From the NCBI GenBank assembly GCA_965285935.1, contig OZ260661.1, positions 82,398,001 through 82,462,000 on the forward strand: a DNA stretch of 64,000 bases, given 5' to 3'. Below, in pieces: positions 557-26,200 of this stretch. Below the pieces are notes generated by a model. That model was not told where the DNA came from. It did not search any database and saw only the letters and a program-made list of their open reading frames with translations. The stretch's first letter is position 1. Every line of letters begins with the position of its first letter. The DNA comes from Ophelia neglecta. Its lineage: Eukaryota. Position numbers and translations under genes: made by a program.

Positions 557-1880
557 CCACAGCCACATCAGCGGCCAAGCAGACTATCCAGTCTCAAGAG
601 GCCAGAAAGCGGCCCACACGCATCAGGCGCCCTCCGGCCAGGCTGGTTAGCGATGTCAGCACTTCATCGCCAACACCTGGAACATCGACAGGTGGTCACT
701 CCCCTTCCTACACAGACACACAGGCCATGATGCAGACTATGATGCAGATACAGACAGACCTTTTCAAGCAACAGGAACTAATGAACGGTCACATCCAAGG
801 ACTCCTACAAGCGGTAACAAACATGGCGCAGCAGACCCAGGGTCGCCCGGCTTCACCAGACCAGCAGGCGCATGACGCTCACGCTACATCTGGGGATGGC
901 TCACAAGAGGCGGACATCCCCTTCACTGGCACGGACATGCCAGACCATCTCCCTTCTCCCATGGTCTACCAGGAACAGGGCCAGCACCTTCAGATCCAAA
1001 GTGTGACACCTCCCACCCAATCAGTCCAGCAGCACAAGACCCACCACACCGGTCCTCAAGAATTCACTGCCGTCCCCATTGTGCCAGCTGGACATTTACC
1101 AGTTACAGCTGCAGGTATGACTGTAGGTAGCGATGTAGACATGTCCTTAAGACAAAAGATTTGGCAGCACAAATATATTGATTTATCTGAATTGTTGTAT
1201 CCCCACACCTCCAGTTCGTATTCCCTCCAGGTTAGCCTGACCCCCAAAAAGTCTGAATGGGGCGATGCCATGCACATTTTCATGGCCGTGTACGTTCAAT
1301 GCCATCATGGTCAACTACTAGTACATGAGCTGCTCACCTAAATCACATACATAAAGGACCTTCAGAAACACTCCGTAAACTGGAAGCTTTATGACCAGAA
1401 ATTCTGATTGGACAGAGAACATTCTCACTGTTCGTGGGCCCTGGTCAGGCAAGATCTTGAGCTACGGGCCTTTCGGCCAACACCCTCAGCCAATACTTCC
1501 TCTGCCCAAGCTCCGGATACCCACACGCCTGACGCAAAGGTCCCCCCGGTTTCTGCTTCCTCTTCCACAGGAGAGGTGTCCGCTGCACCAATGAGACCTG
1601 CAGCTTCAAGCACACCTGCCCCCATTGCTCGCGACGTCACCCCATGTACCTCCAATGTGGTAACAGAAAACACACCCAATATGGCCAGTCCCAGCAACAA
1701 TCTGCCCAGCCTCCCAACTCCAATAAAAATAGAGGCACTGGCCCACCTCCTAAAAAGGGCATAACGATGCTGACTACCTCCTACAAGGTTTCAAAGAGGC
1801 CTTTGATATAGATTTTTTAGGCACGGAGGGGACCTTACACTCTAAAAACTCGCGATCCGTTCTCGATCATCCACAAATAG
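557..1880 (+). mobile_element. Decayed DIRS/Ngaro-type (tyrosine-recombinase) retrotransposon: ORF1 (gag-like) plus start of overlapping ORF2 (RT)
   Basis: ORF1 motifs LRQKIWQHKYIDLSELL, EWGDAMHIFMAVY and WKLYDQKF*LDR. After a frameshift comes the Cys/His cluster CFLFHRRGVRCTNETCSFKHTCPHCSRRHPMYLQC. An overlapping frame reads LPTPIKIEALAHLLK/GHNDADYLLQGFKEAFDIDF..SKNSRSVLDHPQI, typical of the N-terminus of DIRS RT ORFs. Stops at 1339 and 1405. Confidence 0.75.
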
Positions 1881-2432
1881 ATTCATGCTATCGACCCTGA
1901 ATATAAGGTAATCTCACGCAACCATCTGCTGGAGAAAAACATTGTGCCGATATATAATGTGGCCCGTGAGGAAGTGAAGGCAGACATCGCCAAGGCACCA
2001 TCCCATAGTTTTACAACAGATGCTTGGCCCGCCAGCACCATGCAGACCTTTGTGACAACCACATCCCATTACATGGACCTAACTACTTTTGAACTAAAAT
2101 GTAATGTGTTAGATATACACTGTGTGACAGGACAGCATAAAGGAGAGAGGTTGGCGAGTGAGATGGAACTTAGTGAGAAAAAATGGTGCTTAAAAGATGT
2201 GAAAGGAGTGAGTGACAATGCTGCCAATATTCAGAGTGCCTTCAATATCCATGATGTTCCTCCTCTTGGATGATTTGCTCACACTATTAATCTAGCTGTA
2301 AGTAAAGGCTTAGAAGAATCTGCTGTAAAGAGGTTGTTGGGTAAAGCACGGAGTCTGGTTTCCACATTCAAGCACAGTTACATCCGTACCCAAGATCTTC
2401 ATGAGAAGGAAAAACTCCTGGACCTAAAGGTA
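1881..2432 (+). mobile_element. hAT (ZBED1/Ac-like) transposase fragment, pseudogenised
   Basis: IDPEYKVISRNHL..IVPIYN, SFTTDAW (first catalytic D), FVTTTSHY, VSDNAANI (second D), LG*FAHTINLAV (CxxH motif with Cys changed to TGA at 2271), LLGKARSLVSTFKHS. Confidence 0.85.
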
Positions 2433-2532
2433 CCGCTGACATGGCACAATTACATGTCTAATATTAACTTGTATTGTTTTTTGCATTGTATTCCTGCATC
2501 TCCAATGCACTATCCAATAATGTATTAGTTTT

Positions 2533-2696
2533 ATCCTGGCCAGGCACCGGGCGATGGTTTCGGTCTTGATGGAGACTCGAGTGCCTCGGACACCAACACT
2601 GAAGATAGCGGAGGTGTTGGCATGAGTGCCACGCTGCCAAGACGCAGTGTCCGGACACGTCGAGCTCCAGCGCACCTAAGAAACTATGTTGTTTAA
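2533..2696 (+). mobile_element. C-terminal tail of an LTR-retrotransposon/Ginger-type integrase ORF (fragment)
   Basis: The frame ends ...LPRRSVRTRRAPAHLRNYVV*, matching the RRSxRxRxxPxxLxdYV motif found at the end of many Gypsy/Ginger integrases. Confidence 0.45.
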
Positions 2697-2734
2697 AAAT
2701 GTAGTGGAATTAGATGGTAATTAATAAATGTTGC

Positions 2735-2850
2735 AAGCTGGCTCGCTTGGCTTTGCTTGCTTGGATGAGGTTTTGTTTGCTTGTTTGCTTATGTTTTGCT
2801 TGCTTGGTTGCTTACGCTTTGCTTGCATGGTTGCTTACGCTTTGCTTGTA
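2735..2850 (+). repeat. Degenerate (GCTT)n microsatellite
   Basis: Repeated gcttgctt/gctttgctt units, visible directly. Confidence 0.8.
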
Positions 2851-2878
2851 TGAATATGGTGTTTTCTTTTGTAGGAAG

Positions 2879-3472
2879 ATGATTTGTTACGACTGCAATT
2901 AGGAGGTAGGCTCCAAAGTGGACTTATTTTGGTACAAACGGCATGTGCACAACAAACAGGGTGGCCTAAAGAGGAAGAGGGACGAGGCCCAGGAGAACCT
3001 TTTTCCATGTGTGATGAGGCAGTGCCAAAGGAGAATGGGCAACCGGTTAGAGGTGTTGGTCCATGCCAAGGAACATGGGTTGTCGGAGAGCTTGGCCTTG
3101 GCAGAGGACCAGCAGACTGTCCCAGTGGCACCTCTACGATACACGCCAGTGGTTGAGCCAGTAACGCCTCCGCAGAAGACCCCGGTCCCGGCCTTTGCTA
3201 GTGGAGTGGCCACTGCACAGTTCTCCTCGGCTGCAGCACCAACGCCGCCTCCTCCCACTGCCACGACACTCCCCGTCACCCTAAGGGCCCCCCTGGTGCC
3301 AGTGGCATCCGGCTGGGCAGCGACACCCCTACCGGCGGCGACTCCCTTGCCTGCGATGCCGCAGGCTGACCTGCTGGTGGAGGCATGCAGGGCGGTGTTC
3401 GTCGAATCACACCTGGCCGACCAGCAGGGAACGGAGATGATCTCGCTGGGGTTTCCGCCCACAAACTTTTGA
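2879..3472 (+). pseudogene. Disabled double C2H2 zinc-finger ORF with Pro/Ala/Thr-rich tail
   Basis: One frame reads MICYDCN*EVGSKVDLFWYKRHVH (degenerate finger, TAG at 2900) then FPCVMRQCQRRMGNRLEVLVHAKEH (exact C-x4-C-x12-H-x3-H), with an NLS-like LKRKRD between them. A ttttgtag acceptor lies at 2874. Confidence 0.6.
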
Positions 3473-4162
3473 GTCATGATTTGATTAGAAGCGCCCCTAA
3501 CGAAATGTGACGTCCGCATTTGGAACATTTTTTTCAAGTCACAATAAGTCATTTCTCCGTTGTATGTGCCACTTCGAATTGTAGTGCCTTCGGGACATTT
3601 GATTAAACTACCTTAGTCAAAGCGGAATGTAAATAGTTAGTTTAGTATGTGTATTTAACCAAGAGTCTGTTTGGGTCTATGTTGGTTTGCATGTGTGGGA
3701 TTGCCGTAAACAATCCCTTGTGTGTTTTGATGGCTTGCATGGCTTGCTGCATAACTTAATTGTTGGTCAGCCCCTTCTAGTGATGAAATAGGTGCTGATT
3801 AATGCCACAACTTTGCCAGGAATGGGAGAATGGACATCACATCATGGACGCCCAAGATGAATGACCGAAAGTCCCCAACCTGGTGGTTGGAAGAGAAAAA
3901 TTCTTTCTATTTTATGTAAACAATTCTGTAATCTTAGTTAATGTTAAATTAATGATGTATTGGATTATTACAATTTGATTGGAATGTCTCAAAGCATATA
4001 TTATTGGCTTAGGCACTAAATTGTGCCTTATTTGGGGTATAAGCCGGCCCATTTTGTTGTTTTTGGGACATAGGTTGATGGCTGACAAAATTACATTCGA
4101 TAAATCAAATTTCATAAAAATAAGATAGTATATGTCATTATGGCAATTATTGTTTGTTTTAG

Positions 4163-4791
4163 GCCCCCACGAACACCCTCCCCCCCCCCCAACATTAACA
4201 AACCACCTCGGCGCACCCCCCCCCCCCCCCCCCGACGACGACGATATCCACATGCCAGCTCCTTGGCCCCAAGGAGCCCATACATTTCGAGATGATGGGG
4301 CTCTTTGCCCATATCAGGGCACGAAATTGCCGCTATCCCGTTGGCCCGGGACAAGCTATTTTCGCGCAGGGCAAGCTGATCAGTTACTTAATTTGTCCGC
4401 CGGGCTAATACAGCAGCGGGGGCCAGTTACTGGGTTAAATTTCGGGCAAGTTATTGTTTTCCGAGGCAAGCATTTACCGCTGGACACCATTTTTGACTGG
4501 GTGAAAGTTAGGCAGGTCGCTGCATGTATGACAGTATCGCAGCAAAAGCATTGCAACTGAAGCCTAGTCACCGGCGCCATCCCTCCCCAGCTGTGGCAAC
4601 AGGAACAGCAGCAGCAGGGACCCATGGGAGCCCCTGCTGCTGCTGTTCCTGTTGCCACTGCTGGGGAGGAGGAGATGCAAACAGATTCTCAATCTGACGA
4701 TGAAGAATATTATTCTGAAAGCTCTGACTTTGAGGGGGAGGAAGTGGCCTTCACCCAATTTACTTCCTGTCATGTAAACTTCGAAATATAA
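4163..4791 (+). pseudogene. Spliced terminal exon/ORF with one in-frame TGA; Pro-rich start, possible Bro-N-like domain, acidic tail
   Basis: Acceptor ttgttttag at 4162. The ORF 4132-4560 continues in frame past TGA (4558) as SLVTGAIPPQLW...DSQSDDEEYYSESSDFEGEE to TAA at 4789-4791, followed immediately by AATAAA (4791-4796). Confidence 0.45.
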
Positions 4792-4893
4792 ATAAATTTG
4801 AATGTGATGGTAGTTTTTAAACTTTTATATTATATGCCTTATTTTATGATTTAGAATATTAAAGATATCTAGCATATTTGGGTCAAATTAATT

Positions 4894-5035
4894 TAGGGCA
4901 ACTAGATTTTCAGTTGGGCAAGTTTGTTTACATGTAACTAGCCCCTGGGCAAGCAAATTTGGGGGAAGTCAAGTTAAAAAGTTTATTTACTTGCCCAGAG
5001 GGCAAGTTGTAAATTTCAATTAGCTTCATGCCCTG
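4894..5035. mobile_element. MITE/DNA-transposon end with GGGCAA/TTGCCC subterminal repeats
   Basis: Multiple gggcaa(g) and cttgccc motifs end at catgccctg (CAGGGCATG on the - strand). Confidence 0.45.
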
Positions 5036-5201
5036 CATAAGTTATTTCCTTCGACATTATCTCTATAAGGCTTATGTAGTTGCCTTTCATAAGACCTATA
5101 ATAGCATGCATTGGTCACCTTGATAGTGACCAATTATAATCAAACATCATAATGATGTTTGATTATAAATACATCCATATCAATTTTACACAATGTTGCA
5201 G

Positions 5202-6476
5202 TTGATGTGCTAGGCCTGAGAACAAACCATGTAGATGAAAAATTTCCAAGACGTCTTGAAAATGTTAATCAATCATTGAACGTGGCCGCCAATAGTGACA
5301 TTAATGATTCTAACATTAATGATTCTGAAAATGAAGAGGACACTCTCAGTACTAAGTGGGTAAGGCATTACAGTTAATTAATGTTTAAATTTTCAGAATT
5401 GATATTGGTGGTGTGCACATTTTTATTTAAAAAGATTTAACACAGAATATAATTTTCCAAACAGCACCTGTTTAATTTGTATTAAAAAAAGTTCAAGAGC
5501 CAGAGTATCCGAAGGAAAATGAAATAATTGTACCCTTTTTTTTCTCCAGATTATGCAGGGGGCAAGCAGCTCCCCTCCTGTGAGGTTTCAGAAGCTGTTG
5601 CCAAGCGGAAAAGTCTGTGTAAAGGCTACTTGGATTAAACACATACTGGCTAAGAAGAGTACCCCAAAACAAAAAGTGAAGAAATTATTTTTAGGTTTGG
5701 TTGAAGGCCATTGGGAAGAAATCAAACCTTTCGCCTCCGGTACAAAGCAGCTTAAAAAATCTACAAGTTTTGGACAAGTATTCAAAGAACTAGAAGGTAA
5801 TTTTATTCTGTTTGTCTGAAAATATGGAAATGGAGTTCTAATTGCTGTCTTAAACAAATGTTTTAATTAATTAATCATTAGAGTAATTCAAAAGTCACAT
5901 ATCCTAGTGTGTTTCTACCATTCCTCAAAGAAAGTAAAAATTGCTACTCCTATGATCAGGTCTGAATGATTATTTCCTTGATGATTTTTTGTTTGGTCTT
6001 CTTTTTAGGTAATGTAATGTAATGTAACACTGGTTCAATTCATTGCAGAATTCGCTAGCACTGAGTTCAGTGTAAAAAGGTAAAAAATTAAGATATCATT
6101 CTTAGCAGATGAAAAGTTTTCAGGGATTTCTTTTTTACAATTAGTCATTGACAAGCTTTTGTGTATTACACACTGGAAAAAAGAAAGAAAGCATTGCAAG
6201 CTTTGTACATTGCGAGTCTCTTGACGAAGGATAAATATATATGAAGCCTGTATCTGTGCGTACCTGAAATACTTCAAAAGAAATATTGTGCTCTGTATGG
6301 CAGGACATTCTTTAGTGATTTGCTTCATTTTAAGCATATTCCTATCCTATTAATTGCAGCCTTGACATGATTATTTTGTTTTTTCTTCTTCAGATGAACC
6401 AAAATACAGCCTATTTAGGTCTGAAAAAATTGAGCCTGTAGAAGCTCCTTTGCAGGCATTGGAGAATTGCCAATAA
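5202..6476 (+). CDS. 3' exons of an unknown, possibly element-borne gene (BEN-domain-like helical segment)
   Basis: Phase-compatible GT-AG exons 5202-5359, 5550-5796 and 6394-6476 translate without stops to ...EEDTLSTKW|IMQG...KKSTPKQKVKKLFLGLVEG...VFKELE|DEPKYSLFRSEKIEPVEAPLQALENCQ*. No 5' exon was found. Confidence 0.45.
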
Positions 6477-6949
6477 GGTATTATTGAACAACTTAAATTT
6501 TCTGTCTTGTAATTGTTATTATTTCATGATCATTGTGTATTGGCCTGTTGAATGGATTTCTTGACTGGCCTCATATCTTCAACAAATTGCATCTGTTCTG
6601 TACAAAGTAGCCGCTCCAATATCGTATATCGCAAATCACCCGCTATATCGGAATTTGCCCGGGCAATACCACCAGACAGCTATCGGCGTATGCTGTGGAA
6701 GTTGGCAGTGTCTAGCTTCCCAAGTCTCCGCGCTGATGGAGCCGAGAGTTTCCGAGCCGGTCCTATATCAGGCAGTTGGCAGCTGACCAAAAGTGTCAAG
6801 ATGTCGTCTGTCAGGACTGAGAGCACATTAGCTCCCAATGCAGATCCCAATGATTCAACAAATAATCGTGCGAATGAGACAAAATTGGCTCCCGCCGATT
6901 CCGCCAGTAGGTGATACACAATGATCATAAAATAAATTGTTTATTGCAT

Positions 6950-7068
6950 GGCCAATATCATATAGTCCCTCATATAAGCCAAGCTGACTAGATATTTTCC
7001 CTCGTCTAAAGACTCTGGGAAAATATCTAGTGAGCTGGGCTGATACTCGGGCCTATATGTTATTGGCC
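6950..7068. repeat. Long inverted repeat/hairpin (52-bp arms, 15-nt loop), probably the end of a non-autonomous element spanning about 6600-7080
   Basis: Arm 6950-7001 matches the reverse complement of 7017-7068 at 44/52 positions; loop tcgtctaaagactct. Confidence 0.85.
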
Positions 7069-7108
7069 TTGTAATACGATCTACATATATCAAAATACTG
7101 TTTCTTAA

Positions 7109-7590
7109 TAAGGGCTATTCCATTTTTTAATTGGGGGGGGGGGCGGACTGATCTTTTTTTGACCCCCCCCCCCCTAGTGCCAATTTATCCTGACCTCCCC
7201 CCCCCTAGTTTTCATTTCCTTCCAACCCCTTAAAAAACACCCAAAATATTGTTTGCGCTAAGCGCACCTCTAGTTTTCACTTCCTTCAACCCCCCCCCCC
7301 CCTGGTGGTCATTAATAAAACGAACTGACCCCCCTGGTGATCATTAAAAAACACCCAAAAAGTTTTTCGTGCTATGCGCACCCCTAGTTTTCATTTCTTT
7401 TCGACCCCCCCCCCCCCTGGTGATCATTAAAAAATACCCCAAAAAAATTTCGAGCTACGCGCGAAACCACCCCCTGGTGATCATTTCAAACTCTTTACCA
7501 CCACCCCCCCCCCCCTAGTGCAAATTAATCTGGACCTCGCCCTTAGTGCCAATTCTCCCCCCCCCCCCCTAGTGATAATTATTTTTAGTT
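7109..7590. repeat. C-tract-rich MITE-like repeat
   Basis: Starts AGGGCTATTCCA, followed by repeated (C)n-TAGT/(C)n-TGGTGATCATTAA units. A related terminus TGAAATAGCCCT occurs at about 19115-19126. Confidence 0.55.
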
Positions 7591-9067: not shown

Positions 9068-12000
9068 ATGATGTTGTCGGAATCACTCAGACAAGCCGAA
9101 AACTCCTTCCGACATGGATTATACAACGAAGCAAGTAGTTTATATACAGGAATTTTAAGTGGTCAATTGTCTACAAAGAAATTTGACCATTTGAAGGAGG
9201 CGAAATATATTCTTCATTCTAACATTGCAACCTGTCACTTGAGAGAAAACAAACCTTCTTTAGCCTTGGAGCAGGCAAAGGAGTGTGAGACGTTGTTACC
9301 CACACCAAAGGTGAGAAGCTGAGCACTTTTACAATTCCAATGTCATTAATTTTTTATAAATCCGGGGGGGGGGGGGGGGGGGGAGATGGTTGCCCACCAA
9401 CATTTTATAGGTCCTAACTTAGTCAAAAGCGTGTTCTTGATTTTAAATCATCCTAACCCATCTACAGAATTCAGAAAGTGTTGTCACATGTTAGCTTTAC
9501 ACTTTACATTCAGCTGTTATCTTGAATAATTCTCATTTATTTTGCTGAGCAAAGAAAATGAAAAGCATTGCTACAGTTTTAATTTTAAAAGCCTATCATT
9601 ATATAATACTAGTATTTTCAATATTTTTGGCAAAAAAGAAAATGTCACCAAACTGTCTTAGTTTGTCTACGTACATTACTTTATTTATAAAATTCCCTCT
9701 TGATCTATTTTGGCATGCTTTTCATCAATTGACCACACAAGTTCATCTTTTATATGAAATAGTTCTTTTTTCCAGAGTTTCTTTCTTCAAGGACTATGTC
9801 ACACCCAGCTCCAAAATAATAAGGCAGCCATAAAAGCATATGTTTTAGCAGTAAAATGTGCCCCAGTTTTCAGTGATGGAGGACCTGATGGAGAGAACAG
9901 TAGTAATTACACAATTAGTGAAGAGAAGAAGTTTGTTCTAGGGTGTCTTCTCCAGGTAGCCTTTACTCAGGATATGGGTCAGTATTATATATACATATAA
10001 CAACATTGTATTACCGGGTATATGCGTTCATTATTTCAATCTGGACCTGTATATAACTTCAAGCCAGTTAAGGGGGTCATTTTTCTGGACCTGTATACAG
10101 GTCCAACCTGGTGAAAGGGTTAGGGTGAGGGCTTATGGGTATACAGGTTCCCAGGCCAGTTTATTTTCAAGACAATAAATGGCCCATAATTATGAAGCTT
10201 AGGCTTAAGTGTCATTAAACCCTCAAAAATGTTATGCGGTGTTGACTGAGTATAAATATTAGTAATGTTTATTTATGCACATGTTTGCATGTTTTAAAGG
10301 TGCGGAACTGAAGTCACAGTTATTGAAGAATGGCTTGGAGCTAGAAATACTACTGAGTATAACGGTACTACTGAGAGATGGGCCGAGCCTTGACATGTGG
10401 CTAGACCTCTTATTTTCTGATCGCGATAGCTACCACTTAACTGCAAATTTAGAATTGTTGCCTATACTAGAACTTGGAGAGAAGGAGCTGGAGAAAGTGT
10501 TAAAAGACATGTTTGGTGATGCAGTAGGCATATGTTGCAATATTACCAAGGGTAGGGGCTTACTTTTCTCTGCATATTAATGAGCAGTTAGACTCCTGCA
10601 TTAAAAGCCTAAAGGAAGGTATCATATTTTTTTTCTAGAAAACTGTATGTATGCACAAGTACATGTATATGGCCAAATCACTATTAGATATTGGTTAGAT
10701 TAAGGTATAGCTTTTAGTTCATCTTTCTCATTTAACCTAGTCTATTGTAGTTGCAAGGACTGGACAGACAGATCACCTATCCTTTTTTGTTATAATCAGT
10801 TTTTATGTTTACTTTATTCATAGGGGGCTGTCACAGACTACACTACTTAATCCATCTTCTCGAATATACCAAGACAAACAAAAAACACTTCCAGACAGCT
10901 TTGGGACCATCCCCCCTTGATATTGTGTGTAATACATACCAGAAAAGTGCTGCCGAAAAAGAACCTAAGACTTGCCACGCCACTGAATCTCCGCCATCAG
11001 AGGCTGCCATGGACATGTGTTATTTGTTAAACTTATTGTTGTCTGTTGGATTGATGGAAAGAAATATCGAACAATTCGGGGACATGTGGTCAGATTTGTC
11101 AGAATCAAGTTCTCTGATAGACTACATAAACAAATGGCTGGAAACAGGTCATATTTTGGGATATTTGTGACTTGAAATTGGTGTATAGGGGTATAAATTG
11201 GTTGGTGTCACATCATGTTCGTAACAGGTGATAACCACTGTACTGCCTGGCACAGGGGCATTATAACATATTATCTATGCATTTCATTTTTTTAAAGTAC
11301 AAGTATCTTATTGACTTCATTGTCTCATAATAAGATAACACAATCTCTATATATTTTTAATTTCATTAATTTTTATTCATTAATTTACCTCTTGTAGACG
11401 AAGCAGAAAAGATGAGAGATGTCCACATAATGACAGCTGATCAAGTCTCGCAGTACCTGTTGAGTCTTCTTTGCAGTCAACTGAGAGGCAAAGTAACGGT
11501 CATTCTCCCCCACCTCACAGTTCTCACTGAATGTGATAAAGCACAAGTACTAGGTATCCAGGGAAACAACATGGCATGGAAAAGTCTGGTTCAGTTGTGT
11601 GTGTGTAACCAGGGTTTAGGTCTTCTCCAGATGTCTGTTGTACTTGAACAGCTTGGTTGTCCCAACCTAGGAGATTCGGTTTATAGAGGTAGGAATTCAT
11701 GTTCAACATACTTTCAGAACACAAATTGTAGTCAATGACGTCTCATAACAGCCTTAGGATACAAGTTACAAAAAAATGCCCCCCAGAGAATTTAGTCACC
11801 ATGGGGACCTTATAGCTGTGCTAGTCCAGTGCTGGCAGCAGTGGTGGCAGTGGCTCAATGCTATAATAGCTAAACCCCTTCATTCTGAAAAAAGAAAAAC
11901 GATGCCAGAGTTGTACAAAATCTCTCTGTAGTGTGATAAACGTTTAATGGTGCAAGCTAGTCATATAAAATGTATTGAATACTAATGGATCATATTTTTG

Positions 12001-15000
12001 CATGATTAGATAACTCCCCAAAATGGCTATGACAGGAATGATATATTACTATATGTAAAATAAGCAATTGACAGTCACAGTCTGATTCTGGAGGTAAAAG
12101 AAGCACTATGATATTCATGATAATGTGCATCTCCAAATCACAAACTAAGGGAAGTTAAACATTAATATTAACTCTTTAGAATTACATTTGGGTCTTGACT
12201 GGGAAAAACTGATGGCTCTCATAGCATTCTATCCAATTTTGATGAAGTATAATTCTTTTCAGTGTACAAAAGATTGTTTCTGCGACCAAGCAGCATTATG
12301 AGGAAAAGTACGGCCCTGAATAACCTGCACAGCAATTTTTCTACAATAACAAAACACCTCATTGAGCAAGATAATATTCTGCCTGTTCTTCTTGATTCCT
12401 GTGAAGACTTAGGTGATACTGGGAGATTTTATCTAATATTCTTCACAAAACAAGGACAAATTTCAAAGAGATCTATACAAGGCTACATATCATCTGTTCT
12501 AGACTTTTTGAGTTTCATAGAATACGGATGTTTTGAGGAGTCAATGATCTGGATTATTCTCAAGGAGGTTGGGTGTGCCATTGAGTCTAGGGTAAAAGAC
12601 TCAGATCAGCTGGGTGAGTTCTACCAACATGACCACACTTTTAACTTTTATAATGTATATAGGAATAGCCTATGGTTTACATCATAATTTTCCTTCCAAT
12701 GAAACAGCAATTTACAATTATAAGTAGGTGCACGCTTATTTATTATTATTAATATTATTATTATTAAAGTCATTGTTTGTAAATGTTTCTATCAAACAGT
12801 ATTAGTTAACAGAAAATATTAATATATCATTTTCTTATTTCAGATTGTCTTGAGCCAAAAATGGAAACTCGTCTGAATTTATTAGAGACATCACCTTGGC
12901 CTGGTAAAATGTGTGATATTTCCATGTAAAGTAATACATTGTCACTAAAACCTTAGCAGTTCTCAATACATGTACCACTACCATGAATTTTGACCCCTTG
13001 CCCTGAGTAAAGGCTAATAAATGAAATGATGCCTTAAATATAAAATTTGTCTCAATGTTTCAGAAATCGAGAGGGTCAATATTAATGAGATTTTAGCAGT
13101 GATTTCTTCATCAAAGACACCGAGACGAAGGAGACGCAATTCATCAAAGTATACATACTTAATTGTGTTTTATCTGATTGCTTCAAAGGAAAATACTGAC
13201 AAGGGAATACCTCAGTAATAACATACTGTGATTATTAACAAATTGAATGTTGTTTTGAAGGGTTAAAATATTAGCACATTTATTAGTTGGGTCGAGGGGC
13301 CTGTTGGTTGATGTCTTGATGAGTTGGACTGTCAGCCGGAAGGTGGAGAGTTATAAATCCTACCACTGGCCAATGTGGTCAGCACAAAGATGTATGGTGC
13401 CAAGGCTTCATAGCCGCCAACCATCCAGCTGTATTCAAGTGTGCCAGCTTATATAGGGAGTCTTACCTGCGATGTACTGATATGACATCCAGGAGAAAGA
13501 CGGTTCTCAGTTGATTGCACCTCTGTAACAGAAATATAAGCAGCACCTTTGGAATGCTTTAACTTGATTGTCATATAATTATTAATTTTGTTGAAAAAAG
13601 TCACCTTAATCTTATTCTGCCAGTCTTCATCACACAGGAAGCTAGTCAAAGAGCCAAGTCAACCGGAGGAACTAAAGAGCTTTGAAAGTGAGCTAGCTGA
13701 CCAAGTGGGCTGTCAGTCCGTGGGGCTGACCCAGGTGTACATGCCCTGTGTACCTAGTCAGCCAGCCATCGCTTCGGCCATCATACAGAGACATATCTGG
13801 TACCTCTCAGAGTCAGCAGATAAGGATAGAGAAGATGTTAGGGGTGAAGATGGAACTGCTGATTCGGAGACTGCAATGAAAACCAGTGTTCTTGTTGTTG
13901 TTCCTGGTAAGAATGCTGTATCATATGCAGTGAATGATTTAAACAGGTATTTACCACACCTGAAAATAGGAGATCATGGTGTTTCTGCAGATCACAGAAA
14001 ACAAGGCAAAGGAAAGGGTTTCGTTCACAAGTCAGGGCTGGCAAAAGTACTACAGAACAAGGATATAGTTGTCTGTGCTGAAGAAACATTTAGCAATTGT
14101 TTGAGATCTTCTTCTGTTGCTATAAACCAAATGACTCTTGTTGTATATCTAAATCTTGACACTTTTTCCAAAGGCTTCCCTCCCTCGATCAATTCTCAGG
14201 TGGCTGCTAAATCAATGCTACCCACGATTGTCATGTTTTCCAAAAGTATATTACAAAGAGAGGACACGCTCAGAACTTTTGGTGTAAGACGCCATCTGAA
14301 AGATCTGTTTGATATGTGTTTTCCCGAGGTGATGTTCCAGTCAAGTGCACTTAGTTCAGGCAATCTACTGGACGATAGCTCAGCACAGACCAAGCAGTCC
14401 TGGGACCTGCTACGGAATGCTTCCTCCCAGTGCTATGGCTCCATGGGATATTTGTCAGGTATGTACCTGTAGGCCTATATGTGAAAGCGAATGATTGTTT
14501 TTGTTCCAATTTATATTGATATAAACACACTGGCGTGAATGATGTGCAAGTAGCAGCAGGTAGTTGAAATGGAGTTAACAGGATATCATATTTATTATGT
14601 GTCCATTGTAGAAAAATCAAAACCCAGAAAAGGTACTTATATTTACAATTATTTGTATTTGAGGTTAAAACTTTTCTAATTGTATTTTAACAAAGTAATT
14701 GTAATTTGCAGGTTTGTTGATCTGCGAGCCTCATGGTGAAGAGAACAATCAACTCAAAGTGGAGGAATGTGTAAGAGATATTTTACCTGCCTCTCTAACT
14801 GTCTCCAGCTTACAGGACATCACAAAAATGCCAAAGTCCAAAAGAAAGGGCTGCAACTTGTACTTGATCAAGTATCATCCATGTATTGTGCATGTATGTC
14901 AGGACAGTCTCTCAACAGATGTCAACTTGGTATATTTAAAGAGAAGTGGGGATGCCTACGCACTTGCAGGAACCAATTTGAAGAATGTTTTACAATGTCT

Positions 15001-15022
15001 TTTATTTTCTAATCTAACTTAA
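9068..15022 (+). CDS. Uncharacterised ~979-aa protein: TPR repeats, helical/CARD-like modules and a degenerate Dicer/RIG-I-like (SF2) helicase domain
   Basis: Ten GT-AG exons: 9068-9310, 9776-9977, 10300-10551, 10824-11147, 11398-11688, 12263-12613, 12844-12903, 13064-13148, 13638-14458, 14712-15022 (2940 nt, all phases compatible, no internal stop). TPR-like segments: AENSFRHGLYNEASSLYT, LHSNIATCHLRENKPSLALEQAKEC, SFFLQGLCHTQLQNNKAAIKAYVLAVKC. Gene structure is well supported; domain calls are by eye. Confidence 0.85.
13289..13555 (+). mobile_element. Degenerate tRNA-derived SINE in intron 8
   Basis: tRNA-like head (ggttgatgtc..ggactgtcagccggaagg..gagttataaatcctacc) followed by ccagctgta...cctgcgatgtactgatatgacatccaggag, resembling the conserved central domain of marine-invertebrate SINEs. 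Confidence 0.5.
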
Positions 15023-17265
15023 AAGTAACTGTGTGATTCAATATACCCAGTGTTCTTTCAGTGCCACTATGATTTTTTATTATACCCAGTGTACTTTCAG
15101 TGTCACTACAGTTCTTTGTTTCATTTTTTAATGCCTATCATCATAATATTAGATATTTACAAATGTGTGTAATGATTCTGTGTGTGCTGTTTTTGGTGGA
15201 ATGTTTTTGATTAATCATATTAAAGCCTTTTGAAAATAGTTGGAAAGCCTTTCTTTCTCTTAATAGTATGACTTTTACCAGTCTGTTTCACATTCACCTG
15301 GAATAATTTGAAAAATATTTTGTGGGTGTACAAGGATCCATTAAAATGAAAGAACCTACTTGTCTCACTGGATAGAATTATACAAGTAGATCTAATACAG
15401 ACTTCAGATTTTAAGAGGTATCCTTCATTTTAAAACTTTTTTTTATAAGCCCCCACATCAGACCTTGACACTGGGAACTCCTCACAGCCTTGATTGCCTT
15501 AATTTTAACCCTGGTACACCCTCATATTTGGTATTTTTTAGTTCATTTTAGGAGTGTGAGCAATATTGGTTGAGGGGGGAGGGGAGGGGATTGTTTGTCC
15601 AAAAAAATAGGGGAGGCTGGGGATCATTGGGACAAAAATCGTCCTAATAATGAATGTATGAAGCATAAATACCGATACCAAAAATTATTATTTGGAAGAG
15701 CAAATCCCTCCCCCCCCCACATATTCAATGCCATCCCTTTTTAATGTTTTCTGGTAAAGGGACTCAGTTGCCCTGTCAATAACAACAACAAACAACACCA
15801 TTATCAATGGAAAGCCCTTGGTAATAGAGTCGAAAAAGTTTGTTGCCCCCTGTTCACCCTCTCCCACAGCCCCTGGTCTCCCCTTCCTCCTAATATAAAG
15901 CAAGGCAAAAGAATATTCAAATATTTTCTGTGCAAAAATTTATTTACAAACAGATTACACAGCATAGCATCAAATAGTTAAGAGGGAATAAATAGTTTAT
16001 CACATTGCAATGTACAATATATATAAATAACATAAACCCTCCTGCCAAACAGGAGAAATTAAACACAAGCCCTCCTGACAAGAGAGTAAATTACAATGAC
16101 ATGTACTCTACATGTCCATGACATCCCTGTTGATTTATCACACTGATTCTGCAAGCAGGGTGAAAAATTCATTCAATAATTCTTACTAACTTATATCCTT
16201 TATCTATCACACTTTATACTCTAGTAATAAATTAAAATTTTACAATCTTGCCAGATTGTAAAGTGACAATGTGATACAGAATGTACCTATCACGATATAC
16301 ATGTAAAACATTTGAATGTATGTTTTGCATTACATGTATTACCAAATATTAGGAATGTCTTAGGCAATTTTAAAGCACCACTTTCTAATACAACAATGTA
16401 CGCAAGGTCAACTACTGCTGGGGCAACTCAGCTTGACAAGTATTACAGTATGCTTTCCAAAGTATGTGGCCAAATAACTTTTCAAGTTTTCCATTTTCAC
16501 TGAATTTCCTACGTAAAATACCCTATTCACTGATACCATGTGGGTAAACATATTTGATTGTTTACTTATCACAGCATTGCACTATCTTAATTCTGCTTTA
16601 ATTGAGTTTATCTCTGAGACACGCACTATCATTTATTTGTCAAATATATAAAAAAGGCATATCTTCATGTTTTATAATGAAAAAAAAAACAGCACTATTT
16701 TCCAAGTTTGCAGACAGCTCTGCCAAAATAACCAACCCTCCTTGTTTTAAAATGCTGCTATTAATACAGTAAATCTATTTTATGGTACATGAAAAACCCA
16801 CAAATCTAGCCGAGTTGCATTACATAGCATCAAGTATAGGTAGTTTAACAGACTCTGAAGGAAGGGCACATCTACAAATAGAGGAACCCATTTCCTCAGT
16901 ATAACTGTACAGTCATCTGATGTATTACAGTTTAAAATAATGGCTTGTACATATTTATTTACCAAAAACCTTAACTAGCTTCATATAATAGCCTAATAAT
17001 TGAATTGTACAGCACAATGCAAAGGATAAAGGATGCAAATTTTGATACTTGGGCTTGCATTCAATCCAATATGTGAGGGTTTTTCGGCTTTCAGTTACCT
17101 ATAGTACTTGTATCACAGCAAAACTTGGAATCAATACTATAGCATAATAAACTCACAAGGCAATCAATGTTTAACAAGACATTCTTAAAATTTCAAATAC
17201 ATGTATGAAGTTTTTTATACATAAAGTACCGGTACTTTTTCTTAATGTCTGCTTGCTAGTGAGTG

Positions 17266-20200
17266 CTATCTTTGTCCTTGGGACTGTTGGGCTGTCGAAA
17301 ACAAAAGAATAAAGCTTTAATAACGGTAATAAGACCATACTATCATTGGACAGGAGTGGAGAATGTGCAAGTGGTTTTTAATGTAAAGGAGACAATAGTT
17401 ATGAGCAGAAAATCTTTCAGAATGCCTATTCACTCATATTCTATTGTAAAAATGTTCCAAGAAGCCAGATTTCATGATAACAAATTTAAATGTGGCTTAC
17501 CATGTTTGATAACATTCTGTCTAGCTCTTAAAAAGGCCATTATGTCTGCGTCTGCTTGGGCGTCCCCAGTCAAAGGAATACTGCCAGACTTCTCTGCTCT
17601 GTAAAACCAAATAAATCAAACAAAGTGTTAAGAAACATGCACTCCAACTAATAAATATTAATAATAGAATACCCTAGTCATCCACGTATTATAATAATAA
17701 TTCCCTCTAACTAATGATTTTATTAAGTTTATGATTTACAGATTTACATTTTAAAAGTTAGTTGACCAAAGAATTTTACCGAGAAGATTTCTGCTGTCTT
17801 GATCTGTGGCTGTGGGCTGATTCCTGAGATCTATACCCACTAGTCTCATCAGTGCTGACCCCACCAAACGCACGTTGACGAAGATCGCCACTGCCTGCAT
17901 TGAAAGACTCAGAAGCCAAGCTTGACTGAAAAGAATTGAACTGTTGTATAAGAAATGCATTTAGTAGGAGTGTCATAGATACAGTACATATCGATATATC
18001 GCTATTCCAAATTTATCAATTTGTGTATCTATACATATGGCTGAACATCGTCATACAAATACAAATACACAAAGATCATAAAACTTAGTAACTGTCACCT
18101 GAGAACAGGGTTCTAAAAAAGATATAAAGATGATTCTTGGAAAACAAAGGTTTTCTGATAAATATTGTACAAAGAAAGGGTTTTAAAACTTGTATAGCGG
18201 AACAATGACAAAGTTTCAATATTGGAAAAACCTTTTGGACATGAGTTTTATTTCACATGTGAAACATAACATGTTTCTCATCTGGCAAGAGTTCAGATTA
18301 ATTAAGAACAATACCCAGAAACCTCTTGTCAAGAAACATTAGTCAATACTTCCCATATATACAGTGTGTTCAATTAATAATAACTGGAGCTCTGGCCAAG
18401 GTTTAAAAGGACATTGAATAGTCTTTTCAAGAAGGAAAAGCAGAATATTATAGGTTAGATTTTTGTTTCTTTCTATTTGACCAGCCGCAGAAAAAACATC
18501 TTGAGAAAAAAATAGTTCCAATGTTCAGCCGTTAGCTGCTACTAAGTCTTGTCAATTTACTGCATATATGGCTTGTTTTTTTAAAAATGTATTAATCCTT
18601 AGCAATAAAACATAATTTTAGAACTGACACTACATTATTGAAAATCGAGGTAATCCACCTTTACTCAAGTTACAGTAGGTGGTATAAGCAAGCAAATTCT
18701 TTAGAAAGAAATATAATAAATGAATTAATTAATATGTTGGTAATTTTAGGTTGGCCTCACCTGTGATGAGCTAGTTGAGAACACTTGTTGTTTGTTTTCA
18801 CTAGGGGTGAGGGGAGGGGTTCGCCAGGCAGCCTTAGCCTTAGGCTCCTTCAACACCTCTTTTTGCTCCTAACAGAAAATAATCTCATGGTGAATAGGTC
18901 AAGTTAATCTACACTGTTTCTATTTTCCTATCACTTAATGTTTTAGTTAAAGAATTACTCTGAAGGAAAAAAAAACTAAATATTCCTTGTTAATATAACA
19001 ACAAAACTGAATGGTAGAATGAAAGACACCCTGTTAGTTATATTTCCCTTATATAATAGATAACAGTATGTTGCAACCCCCCACCCCCACGCCCATCAGC
19101 AATTCAATGAAATATGAAATAGCCCTAGGCTCAAAAGTACAATTCACATCCTTTTCAAATTTGATAAATTTGTTGTGTTTGTGCAGAAATATGGAAAATC
19201 TGGTCTCCTCACCAGCTCTTAACCCCAAGCGAATGTAAATGGTATGGAAAGTAAACGAAAAAAAAAACAGTTAAGGCCGAAATTCAATCCCCTTCACACA
19301 ATCCACCCAGTTTTGACCAGATGAGGAGGTTTAATACCTGTAAAGAAGCAGCCTGCTCAGCCCACCATATTTCGAAATCCTTCATCAATTTGACCTTTGA
19401 CTTCTCCAACAAATGCTGCAGATGTTCAATTTCTGTTTTTAGCGTTCGTAGTCGGTTGAAGGATTCTTTGTACTTGTTTTTCTCTTCTTCTATCTGGTGC
19501 CTCATTTCTTGTTCAAGATCGTCTGGCTCTGGATTTTCTGGGTCTACTAAGCCTACATCAAACATATAAACTTACAATCTGAATCTGAATCTGAGATGCT
19601 GAATTACCCAAAAATGTTCAGTTTTTATCCATAACTTTGTTTAAAGTAACCAATTTTTGTTTAAATAAACACCATGGCATACAGTATTTCTTACCTTGCA
19701 TTACCCGAGACATTCTATGCTGTTCAATAGAAGATTTGAGTTTGTCTGCAATGAAATTGCATCATGCATATGGCATAATTATCAGGGATGAACAGGGCAT
19801 ATCTGCAGATTATAGACGTATTAATGTTTGTTACTGTAACATCAAAATTATAAAAGCACAGCAATGAACATCATGTTCACATATTCGACTATAGTTTTCT
19901 GTTCAAGAAAAAACTTAGATCAGTATCACAAGTGTTATCAGAAAAGAGATAACTTTGACCATTCCATTTTCGGTGATAAAAACTCTAGCTAAAAACCACA
20001 ATGACACTTATGAAACTATCCTCATTAAAAGTTATGTTTATATGAAACATGAGTTGATTGAGGTATTCAATTTTTTACTTACTTATTTTTGTCCTGGCAT
20101 GATTCACTCTTTCCCCTAATGACTTGGCCTCTGCATATTTTTGTTTCAACACTCTCTTGTTTTCTTCTATATTTGGCTTCTGTGGATAATCTCTTCGAAA

Positions 20201-23200
20201 TATCTCAAAAGCTTCTTGTCTGCCCATAGACATTTCTCCCACTGAAAAAATGATGGTATGAATCAAAAGTTAAATATTATACAAGGGCACAAACACACTG
20301 GTGATATTTCCACAATTAATCCACAGGTAATATAATGAATCCAACATAAATTGCTACCATAAAAATCAATGCAATGTTGCAGGGGTGTAAAGTCAAATAT
20401 TTCCACCCCTTCGTCAACTTTGCTAGTTCTGGACATTGTGGCTGATGATTTTCCTCTCAGTCTAGGATGTCTCTTCACATAATTCTCCGTCCATTTGGCA
20501 ATATCTTCTTCAGTAACCGGATCATTTATAAAGTTTAGTGATGTGCACAACATGGTTCTTTCAGACTTGCTGACAATATCCACCTACAGCCCTCTAATAT
20601 TGGTATTTATACTTGTACTTGGATCAATCCTATATGGGTGCTAGGTGAACAGCTAGGTGTTCTGCCAATTAAAGCTAGTGAAATACAGGAAAGGATTGTC
20701 AAATACATGTAGCGCCAAATTCCAGTATTTGAGTCAGCTGAACGTGCAATAAATAAACAAAAAGTAGAAGCAAATTATGCATCATGCATTTTTACAAATG
20801 CACTTTGCACTGAGGTGATTGTTCCACTATGAATATGTGTAACTAGACACCTAGCATTTGCCCAAACACTTTAAACATCGCCTTATAATATGACATCAAA
20901 TGCAACAGAATGTTCAATATTGCCAGCAATCCATTAGGCAGCAGTTGTAATGATCAATAGAGAACTGTCATAAACAAATTCCAAAATTTCCTTAGTCACT
21001 TGAATAATGCCAACTTCTTATAGAGGTAGAGTTAATAAGGCAAATGATATATTTCTAGTTAGCCTGTAACATTGTTCAATTCTAATAATGCAGTCTGCAT
21101 GAATCTAAATTATAGGCATGGTTCCTAAGCTTTATTCTCTTGATGTGTTTATGCCACTACAACCAGGCCCCAATGGAAAGAATTTTTATAAGTTGAAAGT
21201 ATTTTGCACCTGTCAAATGGGTGGGCATTCAAGACATCCTGCTGATTGCAGCTTGTTTCTGAGGTGCTACAGTGTTGCACGCAGTCCTCATTATAATAAA
21301 TTAACACTTTCTATAGAAAACTTTCATGGTTACAGAGGTGTGTTCCATGTAATTTCCGCATGGGTTGGGGGTGGTGCCCATGTTGTGTGACTCCCCCCCC
21401 CCTCTTCAAAAAGAAAATATTGTGAAATTTTACCTTAATCTCTTGAAACAAATGAATTTGTGTTTAATGATACCTCGTACATTATACTTTCTACTCCTCC
21501 CATAGAATGGAATTGTGCAATAGATAAGTGTTCTTTCCATTCATGGCATGTCCCAGTGCATTTTTATTGGTTGCAACTATGCAAGCATTCATTATTTTTT
21601 TTTATTCATCATATAAAAAAAGTTGTATTTTTGGAAATATCTTATTTCACTACTCCCTAATTAGGTAGGATTAATTCCTCTGTGGAATAAATTTTTAGGT
21701 GAACAGAAAGTAGGAATGTTTAAATGGGAATATAATCCAAGCCAAAATATGTATACGTACGACTAAGTATTATATTGTATCAAAAGTGTATTGTACTTAA
21801 CAATGAATCAAAAAAACTTTTTTAAAAATTCATCCTTATCAGCAGGGGGCAGACATGTGTTAAGCCAGAGGCTTTTTTGACTTGGCTGATAAACATAGGA
21901 ACCTTCCATCTTATTTAAGTGACCCTTCCCATTTCTAGGTGTATGGTTAAAAGCTGTTGCCCCCCCCCCCCCTGAAATGGGATGCAAACAAATGTCGGTC
22001 CCTTCTGGTGTGTCCCCCTTGCCATAAAGAATGAACACTCCCTATGATATATATGTTAAGCCAATCAGCATCACTATAACAATCTATCACACCACTACTC
22101 TTAAGAGTGTCCTTATAATCCCAGATACATAGCTGCCCCATTAAGATTAATTTACATTACCTTTGGTATTTGCAACAAGCCCCTGTACAAAACTAATATC
22201 TAGATTTGGAACACCCAATGCAAATTTGGGGACATGACCTAAAGGCAGAATTCTGGTAGATAAAAAATGTCTTCTCCCTTTCAGGTGATTGGTAGTCAAT
22301 GAATCAGACGAGATATTTATAGAACAAGATGTCATGGATGCCAAAGTCCCCTGCACCAACACAAAGAGTCAATATTATTACAGTAGTCCCTTAGACATGG
22401 AAATAAGTCACACATCAAATTTGAGGATGAAATACCAAAAAGTTGTGCTTTAGTGAATGTGTACTTACATATTTTTGTCTTTGTTTTTTCTTCTTTTTCA
22501 TTCAGAAGCTTCCTCCCACTGGCTGCAGATTCACTACTCACAGACATACTTCTCTGTCCCTTGGGAGCAGTATGACCATTTGCTATACCACTGCTGCTGG
22601 TTTCGACAGGCACATAGCTCTCGCTGATGTTCGAACTGGATCTAGGCACATTTTCGCCTAGACTTGCTAGCTTACTACTTGCATCAGCTGCTCTCTTCTT
22701 TTCTTTCTTAAGCATATTAACCAGTATATCTAACATATAGTTAAGAAGTTTTGTAAAATGTATCTTATCACACTGATTCAATTTCAAAGTACTGGAATCA
22801 AAATTTTCATTAAATTGGAAACATTATCAACAATATGCTCTGCTGTACTATTTTCAAAGATGTCATTGTTTTTCATAACAATTTTATCAGACAAACCCTG
22901 TACAATCTATCTAAATGCACTTATTTTCTTTTTAAGGATACTTATTTCATTATCTCTCTGTCTGATGAGTTCCCTCAGTTTCTTTGCCTCGGTGGAGTCA
23001 GCTGGGGCAGAAGGTAGTCGGGGCATTTCCTCTTCTCGGACGGTAGAGGGTGCGCTGTTGGCAGCTGACCCTCCCTTGTTCAAAACATTTCCCTAATAAT
23101 ACAATTACAATTATTGTTATCAATGCTCATTCAAATTCAAACATTAAATTTAATTTCATAAATTTTTTTTTTTAAATATCAGGATTTTTATATTTGATTA

Positions 23201-26200
23201 TTTACCTTAAGTATTTTAAAGCACTCTTGTATTTTTCTCATATCAGCACCAACATTAAGAATTGCCTCAGGATCTGTATCCTCCAAGTAATACTTAACTG
23301 CTTCTCTACATCTGCAAAAAAAGGTGGAATAATCTCAACTCCTTGCTTAGTGGTATAGATAAGGTTAAAAAAGCTTTGTTAATAACATTATCTATAAAAT
23401 GTAGAAACACGAGGCTGCTGGCATCCCTGTTGTCTTGGTTTGAAAAAAAATCTGTTTTAGCCAAGGGAGAACATGGGATGCCAGCAGCAAATCCAATTTA
23501 TACAGCCTATGAGCAATGTTACGGTTTTCCCATTGATTGGATGAGTGTTTCAAGCAAAAATGGTCAATATTTAGATAGTTTTTTTCTTTGTGCTTCGATT
23601 TATTACTTAGACCAATGATATTAATAATAAGCTATATGTTGGCCCTTCACACACTGGCTTAAAGGCACAATAATGTCACAATAGGCCATCTGATCTAGAA
23701 CAGTTTGACTTTAATGCTTCTGAACACACACATACAAACTGTACCACACCCCTTGTGAATTTAAACTAGATCTCAGCTATCACTACAAGCAGGTCAGACT
23801 TCTATATTGTGTACCCTCCCTAGGATAAGAGTTGTAATTAATGCAATCAAACTGTAGCTATTGATACCAAGGGTATAATTTCAAACACATTTCTGTCTGT
23901 CAGGTGTTGGCTCAAGAGTGTGAGTCAAGAGATAAGAGTCACAGTAACCACACTCTCAGTGATTGGGGGCAATAACCAAAGTATGAGACATCAATGAGCT
24001 GATTATTTACCTCTCTCTGTCCTCATCTGTTAGGTCATCAGTTCGCTGTTCCCCTGTTGCCATGGCTAGTTCATCCTTCAACTGAGCTATTTCTCGTTTG
24101 AGCTTCAGTATCATCAGTTTAGGATCCAGTTCCTCATTGAGTATTGCATCATTCTTGATAAGGGCCACTCGCTGAGAAAATCTGCATGTTGATATCGATT
24201 CCTGTCAGTAGAAAACTACAATAACATGTTGTCTTTATTAACTCCCCTCCTGAAGGTAGCATAATATGCCCTTTCAAGTCAGAACATATATACAAATCAA
24301 ATATTGTAAGATTCAAATTTGCAAAGCTGATATCAAACCATTGTTCTTAAGGGTTAGTTTCAGTCAGAAATAATATTCTTTCAGCAGAATTTTCATATTT
24401 GAAAAAAACCCAGTAAAACACAGTTTTTCTAAAAAACTTATTCTGAGGAATATAAGGCAAGTTAACTATATAGGTTTGTGCATCTTCCATGCATAACCCA
24501 AGTTCAGTGAGACTTCGTTAATTATTTTCATTTATAGAAATAAATTTTGTGGAAATATTATATAATTTCAAGTAAACATTAAAAAATGATTTGGGCAGTC
24601 ATTCACACTCCACAATATTATTGGTAGAGTATAGTATGCTGGTCAAGTATCCAACATATATTGGAAACAAGAAACTCACAAAATATTCTGCAGTGGGTTA
24701 TTGCACAAAAATCCTGTAACCTGCTGGAACCACATGCTCAATCATTTGCTTACACTTTTCTTAACTGCAAACTTTCAAACAAATTATCTACAAAACCAAT
24801 ATGTTTGGCTGGTATAAACAATTTACATGTATTTTGCTTTTTATACCACACTTTTTTTTTTTCTTAATTCATTAACTCAGGTTGAAGAGATATCTAATCC
24901 AAAATGCCTTAGCATATATGAAACTCAGCAGTTAATGAATTAAGCTGTTAGCAACATAACCAATAATAATTTATTATACACCTCAAACTGTTTAAAGTTA
25001 TCTGGAGCACATTTCCAGTTTGACCAAAGAAATTGCTACACCATTATTTAGCTGCATTGAGCACAATAGCAGAGTAAAAGAGGAAGTAGTAGGATAGGTA
25101 GTAACAATGGAAGAAGAAAAGAGGAAGTAGTAGTATAGGTTGTAGTATGCAGGTATTATGCATAGTCATTCACAGTTGTACTTACATCTATATTTTTCTT
25201 CTCCACAGAGCAAGTAGCAATCATAGTTGTCATACAGTTCCCACCTAAGCTGTCCCTCAGCACTGAGGTCATCATAGAGTTCCTATATGGTATGTGCTGT
25301 CTGTTCTTATCAGAGAGGGAGACAATAACCTGGCAAAGAAAATTTTAGTTAGTCAAATTTGCTTTATATTAATGCTAAAGATGACTATATCTATGTTATT
25401 AAAAATAAAGTATAAATTACTTGATTATACCATGAAATAAAGTCAATGTATTGGCAGCAAACAAATCTAAAATGTTTTTAAGGCAGCAAGAAATATTAAT
25501 TGATACTCCAGGTCCCAAATTTAAAAGTGACATATAACCTGATGTAATATGTATATAATATTATTGGAAAGTTTGAATATAAGCCATACCTGTTCCAGAT
25601 AGTGAAGAGATAAGTTGATATATTTGGCCTCTGTAAGTAATGTTCCACTCACTCCTGTTTTAGAAACCCTCTCTGATCTAACCATTTTAACAACAAGAAG
25701 AAAATGAGCATTAAATGACTTAAAGATAGAAGACTTAGAGACATTTGCTCCGTAAACACACCATTGCTAAAGAAATAGAAATAGCTGTTCAGTAGTAAGT
25801 AGGAAGTAAATAAATACCCTGCAAGATCCACTAGATGCAACTTAGATCTTCGAAGTGTTGCTGAACCCACCTCCCGAGACGACACATGTACTGTGAATAT
25901 ACAGTGGGAACGGGTAGATGCCTGGTTCATAGGAGTCTGAGAGAAGAAATTAACTTTTTCATTCATCCCTACTATATACTCCAATATAAAGATATCAAAT
26001 AACTTTTTACTATATATACCAAATATATATAAATTTTGCATCTAACTGTTGAACAAAATTTGTACGAGATTGCAGAAAGAAATATTTGGGAAACCTCAGC
26101 TATCATTCTATTTGTATCCCCCAAAAATAGTAGGTTAAGAGCCTCCTCCTCACTGCTAGCAGCATGGGTGCTGAGGTTCTTGAGGTGAATGTTCTGGTCA

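Follow-up and report, generated by a model that had tools for sequence, protein, structure and literature searches.

Exons 5 and 6 of a predicted RLR-derived pseudo-helicase gene in Ophelia neglecta and their doubtful relation to the CARD fold

A predicted ten-exon gene on the + strand (9068-15022) of a stretch of Ophelia neglecta DNA (assembly GCA_965285935.1, contig OZ260661.1, positions 82,398,001 to 82,462,000; the whole 64,000 nucleotides analysed are termed the window) encodes a helicase domain related to those of the RIG-I-like receptors (RLRs), in which the ATPase motifs have been replaced. The domain order comprises weak tetratricopeptide repeats (TPRs), four modules with a phase 1 intron at either end (phase 1-1; exons 3-6), a linker, and an RLR Hel1 domain without Walker A and Walker B motifs. 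A sequence-only reading of the window had taken exon 5 (11398..11688) and exon 6 (12263..12613) for tandem CARDs placed before the helicase. Here they are regarded as modules of a single-copy, RLR-derived pseudo-helicase gene, the product of which would be a scaffold or brake and not a tandem-CARD sensor, a reading given an even chance of being correct. The better founded result is the pseudo-RLR family; the CARD claim lacks proof in the case of exon 5 and support in that of exon 6.

Origin of the helicase exon and loss of its catalytic motifs

Exon 9 (13638..14458) has no match of its own in Pfam or the PDB, and word-index searches with the exon and its alignment, which are weak negatives, recovered no full-length protein. 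Six relatives, all unnamed proteins, were found in a representative library (E 4.5e-54 to 3.7e-4; 31-47% identity). The resulting seven-sequence family profile has two matches among 177,635 PDB sequences and both are MDA5 (chicken, E 3.6e-4; human Hel1, E 0.072), while an earlier version of the family alignment retrieved the human MDA5 chain only (E 0.61). A profile built from the core of the four RLRs of the host, which has three CARD-CARD RLRs on C1 and one DED-RLR on C2, matches exon 9 with an E value of 1.3e-5. In the opposite direction, the exon 9 family profile scores 17-20 bits on the Hel1 domains of all four host RLRs, as against at most 2.8 bits on 16 other host helicase-locus open reading frames (ORFs), a set that included no host Dicer. 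The Hel1 domain of exon 9 is thus, on profile similarity, homologous to the RLR helicases.

Helicase motifs are named here according to established usage. The Walker A GKT (near 13738) is replaced in the window gene and in all five relatives that cover the position, the DExH of Walker B (near 14131) is replaced in the gene and in 4/4 relatives covering it, and the glutamine of the Q motif has become glutamate throughout the family. As the helicase exon is matched directly, both the RLR origin and the loss of the ATPase motifs hold without any CARD. An RLR rather than Dicer ancestry, which the sequence-only reading had derived from the CARDs, therefore stands on the helicase exon and not on the argument first made for it.

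The C-terminal RD domain (PF11648) occurs at three places in the genome, none of them at the window gene. Neither tblastn with host Hel2 and C-terminal domain (CTD) pieces nor profile windows recovered a Hel2 or CTD remnant in the window, and Hel2 motifs V and VI and the pincer went undetected in the gene, although in each case extreme divergence would give the same result. The gene probably ends at exon 10 (14712..15022), the final predicted exon with 102 codons up to the stop, and would lack both the C-terminal domain for RNA recognition and the remainder of Hel2. It is not classed as an RLR, since intact ATPase motifs and Hel2, pincer and RD features all failed to appear.

A first metagenome scan yielded no relatives, while a second yielded two loci, L188 and L189, each with an exon 9 homolog that has a phase 2 acceptor and, behind it, a stop-terminated exon of 96-97 codons. 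In L188 the homolog is flanked by phases 2 and 1, as exon 9 is, and the exon after it runs for 97 codons to the stop; exon 10 of the window gene agrees with this last exon in position and phase and is of similar length. L189 is frameshifted within its exon 9 homolog. This second copy (L189:1887-3047) shares 88% DNA identity with L188 and could represent a paralog in decay, another allele or a misassembly. Given that the window holds no detectable Hel2 or CTD remnant and that the relatives have a stop in the next exon, the truncation looks old.

Gene structure and evidence for coding

The ten predicted exons have GT-AG borders and join into a stop-free frame of 979 codons, from which their splicing is predicted. 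Exon 1 (9068..9310), with the ATG at 9068, encodes TPR-like repeats, and exon 2 (9776..9977) a further TPR-like repeat plus spacer. These fall under the Pfam cut-offs (exon 1, TPR_2, E 0.089; exon 2, TPR_1/2/8, E 0.03-0.06), with 13-15 bits exon by exon against cut-offs of 26-28, and the sole PDB match of exon 1 is SPAG1 (E 0.62). It is the splice phases by which exon 1 is presumed to be joined to the remainder of the gene. The introns following exons 2 to 7 are six consecutive phase 1 introns, and exons 3 to 6 are therefore symmetric modules of 84-117 codons: exon 3 (10300..10551; 84 codons), exon 4 (10824..11147; 108 codons), exon 5 (291 nt; 97 codons) and exon 6 (351 nt; 117 codons). The lengths originally given for exons 5 and 6 are confirmed, as are their AG/GT ends and in-frame joins. 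The peptides quoted from exon 5 occur in its translation, and so does the IILKEVGCAI of exon 6, although the latter exon does not end there but continues for ten residues to the donor. Exon 7 (12844..12903), a short linker, was placed on splice sites and frame, and exon 8 (13064..13148), a linker with a basic RRRRR stretch, on its frame and on two of two allelic differences being synonymous. The basic sequence KTPRRRRR (13120-13148) closes exon 8 immediately before the pseudo-helicase and could serve in RNA binding or as a nuclear signal; in the relatives P0002 and P0008, basic stretches lie within Hel1.

A second allele is present in three runs of one sample, which are considered genomic because introns and exons are covered alike. 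The allelic counts rest on 40 of the 50 listed differences, with two differences in one codon counted separately. Across the whole gene 14/20 exonic differences are synonymous, as against 22-28% by chance (P 5e-6 to 1.4e-4), including 4/4 in exon 5 and 2/3 in exon 6 (6/7 together), and all four listed indels lie in introns. The synonymous excess and the intronic placement of the listed indels indicate that the exon frames are likely real, and the frames of the gene are under purifying selection. In the 762-Mb genome exon 5 and exon 9 each match nothing but themselves, and by these searches the gene is single-copy.

Exon 5 and the CARD fold

No CARD was recognised in exon 5 or exon 6 by Pfam, by local hidden Markov models, by ESM Atlas or by PDB searches, the last of which returned chance SRCR and ArdA matches only, and HHalign against ten host CARDs gave probabilities of 0.3% and 0.2%, respectively. 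Neither exon has relatives in NCBIfam, the PDB or its own genome beyond itself. Exon 5 is absent among the 68 CARD_2 and 150 CARD matches listed for the genome, scores at shuffle level with the local models (from 10 or 24 host CARDs, or from six RLR CARDs), and yielded no relative among 89 candidates from a word-index search of longer proteins. Pairwise comparison with single CARDs, free of end gaps, gave no signal. The genome has a very large CARD repertoire, with 150/150 scored candidates matching PF00619 (286 at first look) and many near-identical copies at loci on C1 and C5, and six DED matches at E 1e-5.

A more sensitive comparison was obtained by forcing whole-domain alignment (here and below, counts over shuffles and over real-protein decoy windows are of those scoring as high; block shuffles preserve the local helical pattern). 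Exon 5 aligns end to end with a host CARD profile, with one two-residue insertion and one three-residue deletion. On a profile pooled from 30 host CARDs it scores -11.0 bits, a value reached by 29/1500 shuffles, 6/186 decoys and 29-36/1000 block shuffles (p about 0.03). Exons 4 and 6 score -8.7 and -11.1 bits, whereas all 30 true host CARDs, each left out of the profile, score +19.7 or more; six host Death domains range from -34 to -1. The CARD likeness asserted from the sequence is thus not clearly above chance, being marginal for exon 5 and within the block-shuffle range for exon 6. The motifs cited in its favour occur in 5 and 6 of the 30 host CARDs and in none of the 186 decoys, but as the patterns were drawn from exon 5 itself the argument is circular. 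As a DED or a Death domain, exon 5 was matched by 68 and 186 of 300 shuffles (host profiles of five and six sequences, respectively).

Exon structure is in keeping with a CARD. In rough calls over 24 CARD and 29 SAM loci, 7 of the 13 host CARD exons for which both borders were obtained have phase 1-1 and a length of 261-318 nt, compared with 2/10 SAM exons, and exon 5 has the size and phase typical of the former. Conversely, every CARD of the host CARD-CARD RLRs is intron-split, unlike exons 5 and 6, and the charged fraction of exon 5 is 16% as opposed to 24-39% in all 24 host CARDs measured, than which it is also more hydrophobic. What speaks for a CARD in exon 5 is its whole-domain alignment, size and phase; every local or database test for a CARD was negative. 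DRH-1 of Caenorhabditis elegans is described as having a cryptic 2CARD region before its RLR helicase that annotation had overlooked (PMC11260149). Because such CARDs escaped annotation, the reading is kept open for exon 5, and that the exon encodes a death fold, in the form of a single very divergent or decayed CARD, is possible but on balance doubtful.

Exon 6 and the terminal module of the family

The score of exon 6 on the CARD profile (71/1500 shuffles, 6/186 decoys) is lost under block shuffling, where 139-171/1000 score as high. Trials of the exon as a DED or Death domain on the host profiles gave 101 and 146 of 300 shuffles. Its strongest signal among about a dozen comparisons is instead with the last exon of the relatives, namely that of L189 (3/3000 shuffles, 2/1000 block shuffles) and of L188 (5/3000 shuffles, 14/1000 block shuffles), with 0/179 decoys and 0/30 CARDs as high in either comparison, and with the two-sequence last-exon profile (1/300 shuffles, 0/186 decoys). 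This match suggests an internal repeat, so that exon 6 would be a copy of the terminal module of the family. The suggestion that it is a second, more divergent CARD thus finds no support, both in view of the block shuffles and because the last exon of the relatives matches better, and a death fold of any kind in exon 6 appears very unlikely from its sequence.

Exon 3 is a possible further copy of the terminal module, matching the last exon of L189 (9/3000 shuffles, 50/1000 block shuffles) and less so that of L188 (151/3000), and is at background on the CARD profile (554/1500 shuffles). Exons 4 and 5 have no pairwise match to the last exon of the relatives. Exon 4, the weakly CARD-like score of which was spotted post hoc, is reached on the CARD profile by 26/1500 shuffles, 3/186 decoys and 25-51/1000 block shuffles, and on a host RLR CARD2 profile no decoy of 186 scores as high. 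The position of the terminal module suggests that it corresponds to Hel2i or to the beginning of Hel2.

A scaffold or brake in RLR signalling

Under the preferred reading, exon 5 would contribute at most one CARD-derived domain and exon 6 would likely be a duplicate of the terminal module. With ATP hydrolysis presumably lost and the RNA-end recognition domain presumably absent, the protein would not be a canonical sensor. The TPRs and repeated modules may bind partners, the dead Hel1 may dock on RLR complexes or on RNA, and the most probable role of the protein would be that of a non-catalytic scaffold or of a brake on RLR signalling.

Several observations weigh against this proposal. The match between exon 6 and the last exon of the relatives emerged late, once some dozen profile families had already been compared, and as the last exons of L188 and L189 are 86% identical they constitute a single line of evidence. 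Exon 10 itself matches these last exons worse than exon 6 does, which the repeat idea leaves unexplained: pairwise comparisons are not significant (238 and 743 of 2000 shuffles; 353 and 1149 of 3000 in a larger run), and the match to the last-exon profile is weak (11/300 shuffles, 3/186 decoys). The terminal module has no match in the PDB, and its tests as Hel2i or Hel2 gave conflicting registers. As Hel2i, the last exon was matched by 9-12/500 shuffles in pairwise comparison with the DED-RLR only, with null results against RLR-A and RLR-B and by profile; another Hel2i/Hel2 register gave 0-2/500, and a reading as Hel2 motif V failed the profile test. The loci L188 and L189 extend for approximately 0.9 and 1.9 kb upstream of the exon 9 homolog and no upstream exons were seen there. 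Single-sequence models, the check proposed with the original reading, are of too low a confidence for both exon 5 (AlphaFold2, pLDDT 39.6; no Foldseek match at E 0.001) and exon 6 (pLDDT 45.1; mixed helix and strand; no Foldseek match) to speak for or against a six-helix death fold. Finally, z values up to 3.0 arose by chance when 204 unrelated profile windows were scanned, for which reason the p of about 0.03 for exon 5 carries little weight.

Alternative origins of exons 3 to 6

Among the alternatives, it is unlikely that exon 5 arose by duplication of part of an RLR helicase, spanning the end of Hel2i and the start of Hel2, and that exons 3 to 6 are all decayed helicase repeats without a death fold. 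The junction of Hel2i and Hel2 in the host DED-RLR does resemble exon 5 (tblastn E 0.14 in the window; 0/1000 shuffles in global alignment), as do, at 3/500, a Hel2i/Hel2 profile and, weakly, the module profile (13/300). The same region of RLR-A (117/1000) and RLR-B (218/1000) does not match, however, two of three profile windows are null, the RLR core profile has no local match, and exon 5 lacks the pairwise match to the relatives' last exon seen for exon 6.

It is somewhat less probable still that the gene represents a TPR-headed pseudo-RLR family in which a dead Hel1 is combined with helicase-derived module copies and with a cryptic CARD in exon 5 and perhaps a second in exon 4, and which would act as a decoy that holds RLR CARDs inactive. 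In RIG-I, CARD2 is reportedly held inactive by Hel2i, and in view of this restraint a decoy assembled out of helicase-derived repeats is an appealing, if unproven, extension.

Cryptic tandem CARDs in exons 4 and 5, a pair lying one exon further upstream than that first proposed, are distinctly improbable. Both exons score similarly on the CARD profile, and against the host RLR CARD2 profile exon 4 scores above all 186 decoys, but the pair was picked post hoc and its scores lie far under those of true CARDs. Furthermore, the two exons are unlike one another (162/1000), the middle of exon 4 is rich in Pro, Ser, Glu and Lys, and its 3' half locally resembles exon 3 (7/1000).

The original proposal, in which exons 5 and 6 are divergent tandem CARDs in the canonical RLR order that signal or compete through CARD-CARD contacts, is highly improbable. 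A host MAVS that could take part in such contacts was not identified. It draws on the rank of both exons within the top 6 of 186 decoys, a Fisher p of about 0.03 for the pair on block shuffles, a weak likeness between the two exons (29/1000 in global alignment), the commoner phase 1-1 structure of host CARD exons than of SAM exons, and the precedent of DRH-1, the CARDs of which are described as unannotated until structure prediction (PMC11260149). Set against these are scores of -11 where true host CARDs reach +19.7 or more, the failure of exon 6 to rise above block shuffles and its better match to the relatives' last exon, the absence of a CARD by Pfam, PDB, HHalign or ESM Atlas, and the hydrophobic, charge-poor composition of exon 5. 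The order is also not canonical, as exon 5 comes after TPRs and two more phase 1-1 exons, and the CARDs of host RLRs are intron-split. Equally improbable is a SAM domain in exon 5 (or 3) followed by a tyrosine-recombinase core-binding-like helical domain in exon 6, for although the ESM Atlas neighbours of exon 6 include integrase-SAM-like, QRICH1 and ALOG clusters (0.92-0.95; 100-134 of 256 features shared), 13/300 shuffles reach its score on a five-sequence host integrase profile and SAM-type RLRs are reported from lophotrochozoans (PMC8998645), block shuffles erase both signals (SAM exon 5, 172-335/1000; integrase exon 6, 71-150/1000) and a QRICH1-like profile gave 246/500.

Other features of the window

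Kinesin exons on the - strand (17240-26400), presumably of a KIF6-like gene, lie tail to tail with the pseudo-helicase gene and leave little space for more + strand exons. Formin exons on the + strand (47490-64000), which are assumed to belong to a DAAM-like gene, include proline-rich FH1 and FH2-like sequence at 62016-63857, and a repeat-rich stretch is located at 50500-51150. Stop-interrupted ORFs at 400-7100 resemble transposon remnants when judged by eye, with gag-like (424-1764) and transposase-like (1881-2273) sequence and more fragments at 6530-7110.

Comparison with known RLR systems

In the openly accessible literature searched, no paper on a TPR-headed, motif-dead and truncated RLR was found. 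Surveys of RLRs seeded by the C-terminal RD domain or by intact helicase motifs would overlook the window gene. Its relatives share the dead motifs and, in one visible case, the exon borders and end point, which points to an old non-catalytic offshoot of antiviral sensors and makes the gene a candidate for regulating RLR signalling in invertebrates. To this the CARD claim adds little until orthologs of exons 3 to 6 permit a real fold.

MDA5 and RIG-I have the order CARD-CARD, Hel1-Hel2i-Hel2, pincer and CTD. Exon 9 and MDA5 Hel1 are collinear along some 200 profile positions, and the window gene likewise has helical modules and a linker upstream of the helicase. It differs from both sensors in the replacement of Walker A, Walker B and the Q motif, in Hel2 motifs V and VI, pincer and CTD being undetected, and in its TPR-like start and four upstream modules, none of which is demonstrably a CARD. 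Among the host RLRs, the three CARD-CARD genes form a tandem cluster (C1:36580000-36653000; L041-L048) with intact ATPase motifs and RD domains present. The DED-RLR (C2:73151000-73163200, - strand; L139-L144, L021, L149) looks intact, with an N-terminal DED (Pfam E 2e-13) and an intron-split CTD that the PF11648 search overlooked; a single 1212-nt exon encodes its Hel1 and Hel2i, and Hel1 is thus contained in one long exon, as in the window gene.

LGP2 lacks CARDs and retains its ATPase motifs and CTD, whereas the Hel1 of the window protein is dead. CARDIB of Nematostella is described as a CARD protein that partners and represses an RLR (bioRxiv 10.1101/2025.11.22.689925) and, from that description, has a recognisable CARD, in contrast to the dead Hel1 and lack of a clear CARD in the window protein. 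With these differences, LGP2 and CARDIB serve as models of how the window protein might act as a brake on RLRs or as their cofactor. Lophotrochozoan RLRs are reported with grafted N-terminal Death, DED, CASc, IG or SAM domains, in a survey that screened first on the RD domain and the main text of which carries no mention of TPRs (PMC8998645). As described there, these grafted receptors resemble the window gene in that domains appear to have been added exon-wise before an RLR helicase.

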